Assembly (NCBI GenBank): GCA_951406725.2
Contig: OX597818.1
Span: 59,644,001 to 59,708,000 of the forward strand
From: Octopus vulgaris
Taxonomy: Eukaryota
Reading direction: 5' to 3'
DNA length: 64,000 nt
The position numbers were made by a program, and so were the translations under genes. Below the pieces are notes generated by a model that worked only from the letters and a program-made list of their open reading frames with translations, did not search any database and was not told the DNA's origin. Position 1 is the stretch's first letter, and each line of letters begins with the position of its first letter. Shown one piece after another: positions 13,369-47,455 of this stretch.

Positions 13369-13880
13369 CGTGATGTATATTTGCCACTTAAATGTGGCTA
13401 ACCCTTAAGGGTGGATGCTACTGTAGGTTGTAGCCCCAGGAGGACACCTCATCCAGCTGGCTATTGACACACTTCCTGTGCCCTATCAGAATTTTCAAAG
13501 GGAAGCCATCCTTCCCATCTCCAGCCTGACGTGATACACACGGACCCGAGTTTCTGAGTTTTGACCCGTCATCTGCATGTGACAATCACCGGTTGCCGAT
13601 GTGAAGCGGTTCCTAATGCCCTCCTGGGGCTACAAGCTACAGTAGCATCCACCATTGAAGTGTTAGCCATATTCAAGTGCCAAATATACTTCACATTGTC
13701 GTGCAGCTACTGTTTATACATATTTAAGTGCCAAATATACTTCACATTGTCGTGCAGCTACTGTTTATACACCTCGCTCAGGGTATTTATTATTGCTTGT
13801 TTACACTTTATCGAGATCAGTGACTTTTCTTCACTGTTTGCATTGGGAACCACTTCACATCGACAACCGGCGGTTGTCAC
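13369..13880. mobile_element. Fold-back PLE-terminal or retrozyme-like element (family B) next to (TA)n
   Basis: 13369-13443 is inverted at ~13619-13694; 13580-13620 is inverted at 13840-13880; internal ~49-bp duplication; hammerhead on the minus strand. Confidence 0.7.
13537..13581 (-). ncRNA. Type I hammerhead ribozyme, one core mutation (U4A)
   Basis: CACAUG-CAGAUGA-C GGGU CAAA ACUC A-GAAA-CUCGGG-UC-CGUGUG. Confidence 0.65.
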
Positions 13881-14064
13881 TATTGGGCGTTGGTTGCGAT
13901 TTCTTCGTTGTGAGTTCAAATTGTCACACACTGATATTGTAAGTTTGTTGTAGGTTTCCCCGCGCGGGTGAACCAAGATTCGTTGGATTGTGTAAATTAT
14001 TGAATTTCAGTCACTCTTTCGTTTGCACCTGTATAATCCCTGTCTATGGGAGGAGTGAAGAAAG

Positions 14065-14972
14065 ATGGAGAATGGACAAAGTTACTCAGCGTCCACGACA
14101 CAAGGAATAAATGCCAACACCTTGGAAGTACAGGAAATAGAAATGGACACAAGAAAGAGGAAGGAAGGAAAGAAATTTCTTAAAAATGGAGGAAAGCAGT
14201 CTAAAGCTGACTCCCCCAGAAGAACTGAAGAAAAGCATAGAGAAGAGGACGGTAGTATACAGAACGTTATCTACGTTCTCGAACAAGATAGAGTTCGCCC
14301 CAACAGAAGGAATAGAGGAATGCCGAGAAAATATTTTTAAAATTTACCTCATTCTATATACGGGGAAAGAAGTATGGCTCAGTGGAAGTAAGGTTTGGCA
14401 ACGAAGAAAATGCCAGAAACCAATCCACGGACCCGTTACGGACAACGAAATGGATACTGCTTCCAACGTACTGTGGCAAACGCGTTGCCAGAGTGAGAGT
14501 TGGAAGAGTGCCCTACGAAATCGAGGAAGAATGGCTGGTAGCAGCCATAACGCACGATATCAAGGATGGGGTAGAGTTCCTCAAGATAACGAGGACTCAA
14601 AAGGCCAATTGGTGGGGATATGTCCTCGAAGGGACCATGCAGTTATCTTTGGAAGACCTGCATAGTATAACCGAAGAAATAAAACTCCCAGAAGACACCA
14701 GACTTCGAATAACAGTAGAAGGAATACTACCAACATGCTTCTTATGCGGCAAAAAAGGGCAGATGAAAGAAAGATGTCCCGAGAAGGAAACCGAAGAGGA
14801 GAAGAAAAGTGAAGAAAACAATACGGAAGAGGTGGTACGAATAAAAGAGACAGATAGAGTGAAGGAACCCTTCACAGTAAGTAAACAGGAGGAAGAGAAA
14901 GGAATGGGTGAATTCTACCCCAGACAGTCAAAAAGGGCTAAAAGAGATGGTGATGAAAGAAAAGAGAAATAG
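14065..14972 (+). pseudogene. Non-LTR retrotransposon ORF1 (L1/Tx1-like gag), frameshifted
   Basis: Overlapping frames 14065/14186/14382; RRM-like RVRVGRVPYEIEEEWL; ITVEGILPTCFLCGKKGQMKERCP is a CX2CX4(H>Q)X4C knuckle with a charged tail. No ORF2 follows before the (TA)n at ~15240. Confidence 0.75.
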
Positions 14973-15269
14973 GTGTGAAACACCAACAGAAGCAGTAGTG
15001 AAAGAAGGCACACGGGAAAAAAACAGCATTACAACAGGGAGAAAGAGGAAGCGTTTATAAAATTGGTTGTGATGTTTCTGCACGCCCGAATAGATCAAGA
15101 CGGGAGCCGAAAGAAGCAGAAGTGAAAAGGAAGAGATATAAGTGGCATTTGGTCACGTGTTCCAAAAGTAAAGAAATAGAGAAAACGATTGTAAAATATA
15201 AATCGGTAATAAGAGTAAGGATGCCGAGGGGAAAAGTGGCTATATATATATATATATATATATATATAG

Positions 15270-15432
15270 CCACTACACACATTTTTTCTCTCCTTGTTTT
15301 ATCTGTGTCCCTTTCTGTAGAAGAGCGTAGGCTCTAAACGTAAAATACTTTTTCTATTCTTGAGCGTTATACTAATACATCTGTTTGTTTTATACACCAC
15401 CTGTCTTCGTCTTTTGTTTTTTTCGTAAACAC
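15270..15432 (+). mobile_element. PLE terminal repeat family H1 with hammerhead-like motif (GAAA mutated to TAAA)
   Basis: CTTT-CTGTAGAA-GAGC GTAG GCTC-TAAA-CG-TA-AAA at 15311-15345; same family as 34017, 50310 and 52352. Confidence 0.75.
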
Positions 15433-45647: not shown

Positions 45648-45797
45648 CATATGCCGTAATGGTTAAGAGTGCGGGCTACTAAACCCAAGATTCCGAGATC
45701 GATTGAATAATAATAATAATAATAATAATAATAATAATAATAATAATAATAATAATAATAATAATAACAATAATAATAATAATAATAATAAATAATA
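45648..45797 (+). mobile_element. Short tRNA-like SINE with (AAT)n tail (family S5)
   Basis: CGTAATGGTTAAGAGTGCGGGCTACTAAACCCAAGATTCCGAG then (AAT)n; homolog at 47755. Confidence 0.75.
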
Positions 45798-45814
45798 TTT
45801 AATTTTTTATATGT

Positions 45815-46218
45815 TACTCTTTACTCTTAAACTTGTTTCAGTCATTTGACTGCGGCCATGCTGGAGCAGCGCCTTTAGTCGAGCAAATCGACCTCAGGAC
45901 TTATTCTTTGTAAGCCCAGTACTTATTATATCGGTTTTTTGCCGAACCGCTAAGTGACGGCGACGTAAACACACCAGCATCAGTTGTCAAGCAATGCTAG
46001 GGGGACAAACACAGACACACAAACATACACACACACATATATATAAACATATATACGACGGGCTTCTTTCAGTTTCCATCTACCAAATCCACTCACAAGG
46101 CTTTGGTCGGCCCGAGGCTATAGTAGGAGACACTTGCCCAACATGCCACGCGGTAGGACTGAACCCGGAACCATGTGGTTGGTAAGCAACTTACTTACCA
46201 CACAGTCACTTCTGCGCA
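45815..46218 (-). mobile_element. S2 SINE, full length
   Basis: As for the other S2 copies. Confidence 0.88.
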
Positions 46219-46956
46219 TATTTTATTTATTTTTCAATTAAAAAATTTTTTTAATATTTTTTATTATATATATATATATATATATATATATATATTTCTG
46301 TATGTAAGCATTTAGATATGTAAATAAACAGATCAATATACAGACGGGTAGGTGTATAGGCTATATGAACAGACACATATGGAGACACGGATCCACACAA
46401 ATAAAGATGCACATCCATACATATAAACATGATACATAGTTACATAACACACACACACACAGATATGCACACACAAGGAGACACAGGTGCAAATATATAC
46501 AAACACATGCTCACACACACATACATAGAAAATACACAAACACGGACAGACAAGCGCATAAATATACAGGATACGTACATACAGATGCACACACACACAT
46601 ACATACATATGCATACACACACACATACATACACATAAAAACACACACACATACATACGTATACGCATGCACACTGACCGACACACATGCGCACAAACAA
46701 ACAAAAGGGGATGCAGTGTAAATAACGGACAGAGTCAAGACTATTGTAAAGGTTGGAACACGCAACGGAAATTTTAGTAAATAAAAATAAGAAAATAAGA
46801 AATAAGTGGAAATTTTACCGGTGAGTGTGTTAAATAAGGCACTAAAAGAGAATGACTCTCCCCAGACGCAACAGAATAATACGAACGTTGTTCTCTAATA
46901 TAAAGGAATAAAAAGGCGGCTTTTTTTTAATGTTAAATTACTGAACACTAATGATA

Positions 46957-47455
46957 TTGGAGTAAAGATTGTTTGCCAACAAAACATGGCAGTCCTGGTT
47001 TAGGACGAATGTTGCTGTAATTTATCCCTAGGAGACATCGTCTCCAGCTGGCTATACGACACGATATGTGTTCTTATATTGTCGAACAAGGGAATCTAGC
47101 ACCCAAATTCAGCTCAAAACAATATCTGTGTATTGCGATTTACGGGTTATTTCCCTTCATCAGCACAGAATAATTGTTCGGCTAGAAGTGCTGATGAAAG
47201 GAAATAACCCGGAAATCGCGATACACAGATATTGCTTTGAGCTGAATTGGAGTACTAGATTCATTTGTTCGAAAATATGGGGACACAGTTCGTGTCGTAT
47301 AGCCAGTTGGAGACAATGTCTCCTGGGGCTAAATTACATCAACATTTGTCCTAAACCAAGACTGCCATGTTATGTTGGCAAACAATCTTTACTCCAAAGT
47401 ACTGTTGCTGAATATCTCTCATTGTGAGATTTAAAAATAGTAATTCTCTAATAAT
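46957..47455 (+). mobile_element. Fold-back PLE terminus family A, ~210-bp arms
   Basis: 46957-47166 is inverted at 47188-47397 with a 21-bp spacer; the tail resembles the family C tail. Confidence 0.85.
47188..47226 (+). ncRNA. Minimal type I hammerhead ribozyme, intact core
   Basis: GUG-CUGAUGA-AAGG AAAUAA CCCG-GAAA-UCGCGA-UA-CAC; palindromic stem III. Confidence 0.85.

Follow-up and report, generated by a model that had tools for sequence, protein, structure and literature searches.

In a 64,000-nt stretch of Octopus vulgaris DNA (the window), three fold-back families, A, B and C, carry a conserved module of two hairpins, H1 and H2. Our analysis showed that they are colinear subfamilies of one superfamily of non-LTR retrozymes with units of about 348-360 nt. 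Sequence comparison indicates that the module could well be a docking site for a protein, most plausibly a Penelope-like reverse transcriptase (RT) acting in trans. An earlier note on this DNA had called the families otherwise dissimilar, a description that does not hold: they align end to end, from the hammerhead to the 3' end, with intermediates. Because they are colinear, we ruled out that independent families share the module by convergence or recombination.

That the three families share the module was borne out, and it was located at five places in the window. The features are:

13367..13430, minus strand: 3' part of B down to fixed end 1, the inferred RT start 1, with (TA)n beyond it
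13431..13463, minus strand: B module H2, with outer stem, 4x3 internal loop, and GGA/UCC plus inner stem
13466..13482, minus strand: B module H1 (hairpin 1), from the covariance model
13537..13581, minus strand: B hammerhead, minimal type I, core mutated (CAGAUGA) and likely inactive
13617..13880, plus strand: B inverted copy, from within H2 across the tail and the remaining unit to a point just short of the hammerhead
35110..35174, minus strand: 3' part of the C minus arm, stops at fixed end 1 beside (TA)n
35175..35230, minus strand: C module, H1 and H2, in a copy 5'-truncated before the hammerhead
35261..35429, plus strand: C inverted arm, H1 deleted, H2 at 35288-35322, continues past end 1 to the second end (tail)
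46957..47022, minus strand: 3' part of the A minus arm, stops near fixed end 1
47023..47072, minus strand: A minus arm module, decayed, from the covariance model
47126..47166, minus strand: A minus arm hammerhead, GAAA mutated to UAAA
47188..47228, plus strand: A plus arm hammerhead, core intact, helix III palindromic, stem I shortened by inversion
47282..47331, plus strand: A plus arm module, H1 and H2, from the covariance model
47332..47445, plus strand: A plus arm, 3' part with the tail; its two ends lie near 47393 (end 1) and 47445 (end 2)

The five window copies match a covariance model with E values of 8e-23 to 1e-7, the model having been trained on such module copies with one window copy among them. 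The next-best match in the window has an E of 0.37. The distance from the end of hammerhead stem I to the module is about 53-55 nt in A and B, in agreement with the 50-55 nt given before, and the hammerhead cut is 58 nt (A) and 60 nt (B) upstream of hairpin 1. The C minus copy is indeed cut off before its hammerhead in the window, and C-type copies with a hammerhead are found elsewhere (L070 and L077). Good folds are predicted for the A plus arm (z -3.2) and C (z -4.1), and their opposite strands fold well too. The fold of the A minus arm is weak (z -1.6), and that of the B copy is no better than shuffles (z +0.55).

The genome contains thousands of copies of this hammerhead-bearing element of about 350 bases. 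Two runs with exact patterns gave 3,817 and 5,318 matches, counts that divergent variants may escape, and reversed-pattern controls gave 0; the covariance model was applied to selected loci. Distinct monomers comprise 16 of 351-360 nt and one of 348 nt, and tandem dimers and trimers are present. A young subfamily forms near-identical tandem arrays of 353-nt units (L347, L363). The unit has no protein-coding capacity: it closes on itself in tandem and contains no RT ORF, and no linked RT ORF was found beside the units in loci L001-L080. The whole unit or circle is predicted to fold alike across subfamilies, including a three-way junction downstream of the module.

All 13 parsed subfamilies have a minimal type I hammerhead with core and stems. 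Its helix III is palindromic over 4-8 nt, like that of the minimal hammerheads of Penelope-like elements. In the L363 trimer, the Rfam model Hammerhead_1 (RF00163) has three matches spaced 353 nt apart (32.2 bits, E 5.5e-5, slightly below the gathering threshold of 34). Other short hammerhead-bearing elements in the window (near 18598, 19240, 51690 and 52138) lack the module, which means that Penelope-type mobilization does not generally use it as a signal.

Within the unit, only the two-hairpin module holds its sequence as well as the catalytic core does. Between-group identity (57 pairs among the 13 parsed subfamilies, at least 13 being in existence) is 0.91 for both the hammerhead core and the H1 stem, and 0.85 for the H2 outer stem with GGA/UCC. 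It drops to 0.61 in the linker, 0.58 in the 60 nt downstream and 0.54 in the hammerhead stems; shuffled sequences give 0.36-0.49. The earlier note had held that full-length alignability, leaving the motif no better kept than its flanks, would speak against its claim. The families are alignable in full, but the module is better kept than its flanks. Most copies were fetched by patterns containing module letters. When the hammerhead was the only anchor, H1 or H2 was kept in 29 of 30 loci and both in 25.

Base pairing is also maintained. At the subfamily level, 205 of 208 pairs are standard (197 Watson-Crick and 8 G-U) and three are A-C, a weak excess of G-U over A-C. On a tree built from flanks only, the 12 outer pairs underwent 14 changes, of which 13 retain pairing, and the first GGA pair changed from G-C to A-U twice independently. 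Two compensatory changes rest partly or wholly on the single-copy subfamily L369. Both sides change in 8 of 16 pairs, and a one-column slide yields no fewer double-changed cells (39 against 33). Covariation is modest, because most outer pairs never vary. The inner stem is replaced with pairing kept, just as first described. The H1 loop varies from 3 to 7 nt, so an RNA hairpin fits better than a DNA dimer site, and the inner stem-loop from 8 to 12 nt. The H2 internal loop is 4x3 and variable (AGCU, AUCA, AACA or GACA with UGG or UAG), its 5' strand having seven variants in 13 subfamilies; CA is absent from it in A and B. A different register for H2, CCA/UGG with a bulge of 3 nt, is disfavored by a U-A pair in L369 and by U-G variants, which is thin evidence. 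Together, the conservation and pairing data support the earlier suggestion that an RNA element on the strand of the hammerhead is under structural selection, and indicate selection on its sequence as well.

The module does not resemble the RNA classes that we compared it with. Rfam covariance models gave no match over it in six loci at E up to 10. Among the best 150 of the 231 Rfam matches listed for the window, none is over the module except a microRNA model on the C fold-back. A tRNA-derived SINE was rejected, ARAGORN finding 0 genes in the six loci, a search that could miss decayed heads. The K-turn and SECIS consensus has tandem G-A/A-G pairs beside the loop; the module loop strands have none, and both were set aside. 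In metagenomes, 119 loci fit the pattern, and the model run on 100 of them gave partial matches of at most 24.6 bits, which we took as chance. The sequence is present under three other organism labels, where coverage depth peaks over the module, a signal that 5' truncation and mutations of the reference copy confound. No record listed with the sequence is RNA. One run guessed to be RNA has 38 contigs with the sequence, and contigs are blind to strand, level and circles. We found no description of such a module in the literature on retrozymes and Penelope-like elements, Repbase and Dfam being outside this comparison.

The ends of the copies place the module relative to insertion. The 3' ends (120 scored of 161 matches) are bimodal: 46 lie 55-70 nt after H2, 49 lie at 100-124 nt and two in between. 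This pattern matches a Penelope-like element that is reported to have a tail and two neighboring RT start points inside its sequence (PMC11167929). Of the ends at 55-70 nt, 19 of 46 are followed by (TA)n, as are 18 of 28 at 100-116 nt and only 2 of 34 longer copies. On the 5' side, 19 of 48 copies reach past the hammerhead cut and two stop near it, with no pile-up there; 17 of the 48 scores are 0, partly through alignment failures, and we claim no hot spot of 5' truncation. The fold-backs, in the window and at other loci, are inverted 5' ends of the Penelope type. No copy ends at the module. Its placement at the 5' end of the self-cleaved transcript, proposed earlier, is thus incomplete: in a tandem or circular unit, the module is also just upstream of the fixed 3' ends.

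Recognition by an RT is our best guess for the role of the module, since it is located 55-70 nt upstream of the first inferred RT start. In the proposed cycle, tandem units would be transcribed, and their hammerheads, pairing up as dimers by way of the palindromic helix III, would cleave and might give rise to circles. An RT-endonuclease of the Penelope-like kind would nick (TA)n DNA and bind the RNA at the module. Synthesis would start at an internal position, either about 62-66 nt or about 103-124 nt beyond the module on its 3' side. The RT would then copy back through the module and an uncut hammerhead, often truncating or inverting the copy, which would produce the fold-backs in the window. 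Alternatively, the constant distance between module and 3' ends could be due to the three-way junction further downstream, whose structure is conserved as well.

The same conservation data would be expected if the module binds a host protein instead. Such a protein could stabilize, ligate, export or localize the retrozyme (circular) RNA or restrain the hammerhead, with the RT recruited elsewhere, for example at the downstream junction. We know of no host factor for such a module. Its absence from the sampled autonomous Penelope-like families fits a retrozyme-specific need, and one account argues that something besides self-pairing has to block the hammerhead in metazoan circles (PMC7229834). 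However, the fixed spacing to two 3' ends is more simply tied to an RT, and we consider a host-protein site possible but rather unlikely. A DNA-level site, an internal promoter or factor site of the snRNA or Pol III type for the tandem units with the hairpins secondary, seems improbable. The variable lengths of the H1 loop and inner stem-loop, the compensatory pairs, the excess of G-U over A-C on the hammerhead strand and the lack of a tRNA head in six loci argue against it, even though the near-invariant stems look like sequence recognition. Hammerhead repeats of newt satellite 2 and the schistosome satellite have internal promoters (PMC2220036), and Tx1-like insertions at one site recall a known preference for multicopy targets (PMC4494074).

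We also give little credence to the module having no separate function and being the slowest-evolving part of a wholly constrained fold, its conservation inflated by ascertainment. The families are colinear, the whole circle keeps its fold and most copies were fetched with module letters. However, identity in other paired regions, the hammerhead stems and rod arm, has fallen to 0.54-0.61, against 0.85-0.91 in the module stems, and the hammerhead-only anchor returns the module in 29 of 30 loci. The proposal of a second catalytic module, either a small ribozyme or a ligase of a new class, found no support and is very improbable. The arrangement of stem, internal loop, stem and dispensable terminal loop is like that of minimal twister-sister-like (lantern) ribozymes, and CA occurs in C-type loops. 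Those ribozymes have a near-invariant 5x6 loop with a conserved CA, and were rejected as a match for the variable 4x3 loop of the module (PMC11620745). In addition, the six loci gave no Rfam match over the module, no copies end at it, and one ribozyme, the hammerhead, is already present in the unit.

Three young, intact Penelope-like ORF families are present in the same genome. We searched a sample of the autonomous families, not a census, for a partner of the retrozyme. The module model found no match in seven regions (E up to 10, filters off), which comprise complete tandem units from two young families (784 aa and 884 aa), a 781-aa copy and the Naiad region. We rejected as partner, since none of them carries the module, the Neptune-type 784-aa and 781-aa families, older relatives, the 884-aa family and the 5' region of Naiad. 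Among loci picked by Penelope-like ORFs, the model matched 2 of 60 and 1 of 30, about the chance level. Nearby ORF fragments at L099, L127, L334, L380, L381 and L397 have (TA)n or other DNA between them and the element, or lie on the other strand. A 10-mer shared with H2 in two Naiad sequences (PMC8557442 supplement) lies in a different hairpin context, and the Naiad region of this genome gave no match to the model. The sequence does not behave as the pLTR of an autonomous Penelope-like element: in loci L001-L080 it flanks no linked RT and GIY-YIG ORF, and the units of the three young autonomous families and the Naiad region lack the module.

The octopus element is similar to other metazoan non-LTR retrozymes, such as the 350-390-bp repeats of mussel and the 330/350-bp repeats of axolotl (PMC7229834; bioRxiv 10.64898/2026.07.22.740005). 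Both have non-coding units of about 350 nt with a type I hammerhead each, in tandem and single copies. Both are predicted to form a self-paired circle with the hammerhead free at the rod tip, and mobilization by Penelope-like elements has been proposed for both. Non-LTR retrozymes have tandem units of 150-450 bp, a range that includes the octopus units. Most described retrozymes have a canonical hammerhead with loop 1-loop 2 contacts, whereas the octopus hammerhead, by its helix III, appears to be of the minimal Penelope type. Unlike the described elements, the octopus copies are mostly dispersed, 5'-truncated and inverted. The accessible descriptions mention no second conserved RNA module and call the sequences species-specific (PMC7229834; bioRxiv 10.64898/2026.07.22.740005).

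With the pLTR of Penelope-like elements (PMC4209133, PMC11167929, PMC8557442), the octopus element shares the minimal hammerhead with palindromic helix III, a copy that is 5'-truncated and inverted, a pair of 3' ends roughly 40-55 nt from each other, insertion at (TA)n and copying through an uncut hammerhead. Unlike a Penelope-like element, its unit has no RT/GIY-YIG ORF. In the anole Penelope-like element, the binding region was mapped only to the first 172 nt of the ORF, and no two-hairpin motif was named. RT-recruiting RNA elements include the LINE-tail stem-loops of SINEs, the R2 3' UTR and telomerase CR4/5. The module resembles them in its small hairpins and internal loop, in conserved letters near the inferred RT start and in an RNA that would be copied in trans, but has no sequence or Rfam match. 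A SINE has its tail in common with its partner LINE, whereas the octopus genome sample yielded no partner with the module.

The partnership of non-LTR retrozymes with a Penelope-like RT has been proposed in the literature, which in its accessible parts names no cis element by which the RT would choose them. The superfamily offers a compact, naturally mutagenized candidate, with at least 13 subfamilies, young arrays and three Penelope-like ORF families alongside. Penelope RTs are the sister group of telomerase RTs, and a defined RNA handle, if true, would therefore inform the origin of RT-RNA recognition. It might also serve as a portable insertion signal. In L261, a stretch of LINE ORF1 joined to the 5' side of the hammerhead has been copied and inverted together with the unit; the cis signals are thus able to take cargo along. 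A wider proposal, which we regard as doubtful, is that the module is the first defined handle that captures a telomerase-sister Penelope-like RT and fixes its internal start, like the RT-binding domain of telomerase RNA, that any RNA onto which it is grafted with the downstream junction would become an RT substrate, as copies with LINE ORF1 cargo suggest, and that a Tx1-like LINE lineage targets hammerhead-bearing retrozyme DNA. If the module is a host-binding or promoter site, the result is narrower, yet the retrozyme has conserved parts beyond its ribozyme.

A separate observation concerns LINE sequences. In the window, an insert with a Tx1/L1-like ORF1 (CCHC knuckle) at 13881..15240 on the plus strand is joined just 5' of the hammerhead site. 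Tx1-like LINE derivatives are located directly 5' of the hammerhead in many subfamilies.

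The module comprises two adjacent predicted RNA hairpins, H1 and H2, the latter with an outer stem, a 4x3 internal loop and GGA/UCC plus an inner stem. All five copies that the earlier note had described in fold-back families A, B and C of the window were recovered. In A and B, where it had placed the module ~50-55 nt 3' of a hammerhead, H1 starts 58-60 nt after the cut site. All three hammerheads that accompany these copies in the window are damaged. No ribozyme is found among 150 listed of 231 Rfam matches in the window, where microsatellite matches dominate. In the 2.8-Gb genome (window on contig G000:C5), exact module patterns gave 3,817 and 5,318 matches, and reversed-pattern controls gave 0. 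A pattern combining the hammerhead with the H1 5' arm matched 3,070 times, versus 2 for its control. As an ascertainment check, a hammerhead-only pattern gave 738 matches. H1 or H2 is kept in 29 of its first 30 loci, with no recurrent module deletion among them.

A, B and C had been regarded as otherwise dissimilar families. Our analysis showed that they are instead subfamilies of one element. We collected 99 hammerhead-anchored segments and dropped six as unrelated or mostly deleted. The other 93 group into 28 clusters linked by graded intermediates; median identity between clusters is 0.53. The hammerhead-to-3'-end alignment spans 42 hammerhead-bearing segments, and C relatives elsewhere in the genome have the hammerhead. 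Tandem copies define a monomer of 348-360 nt; one trimer has three Rfam Hammerhead_1 matches, spaced 353 nt apart and scoring just below the gathering threshold. Helix III is a short palindrome varying among subfamilies. The hammerhead is of the same minimal, dimer-acting type, with short palindromic helix III, as that of Penelope-like elements (available text of PMC4209133). No RT ORF linked to the units was found. The units fit metazoan non-LTR retrozymes as portrayed in excerpts of PMC7229834 and bioRxiv 10.64898/2026.07.22.740005, and the element is a further member of this known class, the hammerhead retrozymes. A young B subfamily with near-identical 353-nt dimers and trimers (loci L341-L348 and L363, contig G000:C1) is likely still or recently active. 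Other short hammerhead fold-back families in the window lack the module (51880-52300, 51570-51810, 19170-19360 and 18590-18700). The literature searched contained no description of a conserved second module in retrozymes, and 'ribozyme' is absent from the main text, as available, of a 2026 octopus repeat annotation (PMC13282606). The family may already be listed in Repbase, Dfam or paper supplements under the label of an unclassified SINE or Penelope fragment.

The module is real. We compared 13 of the 28 clusters, ten with two or more copies and three single copies. Between groups, the hammerhead core and the H1 stem each have an identity of 0.91; the H2 outer stem plus GGA/UCC reaches 0.85 and the module as a whole 0.72. 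For hammerhead stems, linker and downstream flank the values are 0.54-0.61, so the motif is better conserved than its flanks, a comparison set beforehand. Of the 208 pair cells, 205 hold standard base pairs. When changes were placed on a tree that leaves the module out, 14 fell in the 12 outer pairs and 13 of these kept pairing, and the inner stem changed repeatedly on both sides. Across 67 distinct genomic copies, which are related and whose alignment was fitted to the structure, 89% are paired and the covariation score exceeds all 500 shuffles; however, one slid alignment has as many double changes as the true register.

The predicted unit fold, common to the subfamilies, is a long rod tipped by the hammerhead, together with a multibranch loop containing H1, H2, a three-way junction and one further hairpin. 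In the 12 monomers parsed of 16, pairing probability is high for H1 in 11 and for the H2 outer stem in 11; the hammerhead strand is predicted to be more stable than its complement in all 12.

Insertions end at two fixed positions, which are putative RT starts. Among 161 module hits, 120 were scorable against references. The first 3' end, which lies in the three-way junction, is 55-70 nt after H2 (46/120) and the second 100-124 nt after it (49/120). Two hits end between these peaks, 10 stop short of the first and 13 extend past the second. The ends are often followed by (TA)n. The element is also present in sequencing runs under three other organism labels, where coverage begins at the first 3' end. 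An anole Penelope-like element was shown in vitro to have two adjacent internal RT starts defining a tail, to have AT-rich targets and to use uncut RNA (PMC11167929, in part). This class typically gives inverted 5'-truncated copies (sections of PMC8557442), and the fold-backs in the window are copies of this type. The hammerhead cut is read through in 19 of 48 copies; two end near it, and 17 scored 0, some of them because their alignment failed. Since copies run through the cut and rarely end there, the RT template was likely a circle or uncut multimer.

At 13880, the window B copy adjoins a CCHC ORF1 (13881-15240, plus strand); in one locus, L1/Tx1-like ORF2 sequence comes after relatives of this ORF1. 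From its motifs, we read the insert as Tx1. Of the 18 closest ORF1 loci, 14 have the module within 1.5 kb, as do 2 of the next 12. At 13 junctions, in A, B and C subfamilies with differing local sequence, the insert 3' end is just upstream of the hammerhead; duplications are ~15 nt. Loci with joined inserts of this kind are:

L261-L267, L273, L276, L277, L282, L351, L360, L393, L062: Tx1/L1-like ORF1 inserts just 5' of the hammerhead

These composites seem to have been copied again, with ends of the Penelope type; in L261, LINE cargo was copied together with the unit from the retrozyme 3' ends. This LINE lineage possibly targets hammerhead DNA, for which a limited literature search found no report. 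Tx1 elements prefer multicopy target sequences (available text of PMC4494074).

We tentatively favor the module as an RT handle, an RNA binding site for RT, at somewhat below even chances. Tandem units would be transcribed, their hammerheads would cleave as dimers, circles would form and a protein would bind the module. The module stems keep their letters and neighboring helices only their pairing, which points to sequence-specific recognition. A site for a host RNP is a less probable candidate; the constant placement of the module upstream of the RT start and the LINE-cargo copies from the same ends point to RT. An internal DNA promoter has a precedent in hammerhead-bearing repeats (PMC2220036, in part). 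It is improbable here, since variable loops and compensatory pairs favor RNA over DNA. We consider it equally improbable that the module lacks a separate function; it also recurs under the hammerhead-only pattern. A ribozyme is very improbable. The earlier note had allowed for a known Rfam structure, and six loci gave no match over the module at E up to 10 and no tRNA. The variable 4x3 loop speaks against a twister-sister-like ribozyme, being unlike the loop of that class (PMC11620745, as available). Metagenome matches of the module were taken as chance.

The main result against the RT handle is the absence of the module from the Penelope-like families sampled, which include the young intact families of 784, 781 and 884 aa and older ones. 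This is not fatal, because sampling of the families was incomplete and a structural analogue would escape a model that relies heavily on sequence. Neptune-type families end ~60-130 nt after their own hammerheads. The young 884-aa family (L431-L433) has an open frame, 6.2-kb tandems and a long CA-rich 3' region, with no canonical hammerhead by pattern match; its hammerhead-like region in L431 is similar to the window fold-back family at 18598. A motif of an Octopus Naiad element (excerpts of PMC8557442) is present in the genome with flanking sequence. Related copies in the window are:

52549-54430, plus strand: 5'-truncated copy of the young Neptune-type family (784-aa ORF, 114 near-identical hits); its hammerhead has a U3-A8 core variant and it ends ~55 nt later at (TA)n
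3591-4926, minus strand: old broken Penelope-like ORF, ~32% identical to the 784-aa family
41900-42358, plus strand: Naiad 3' end with a split hammerhead-like core, stopping at (TA)n

By eye, several Naiad 5' ends from cnidarian, squid and octopus (PMC8557442, in part; L290) have, close to the ORF start, a hairpin whose loop is GCAGCC-like; this may be a conserved RNA motif in its own right.
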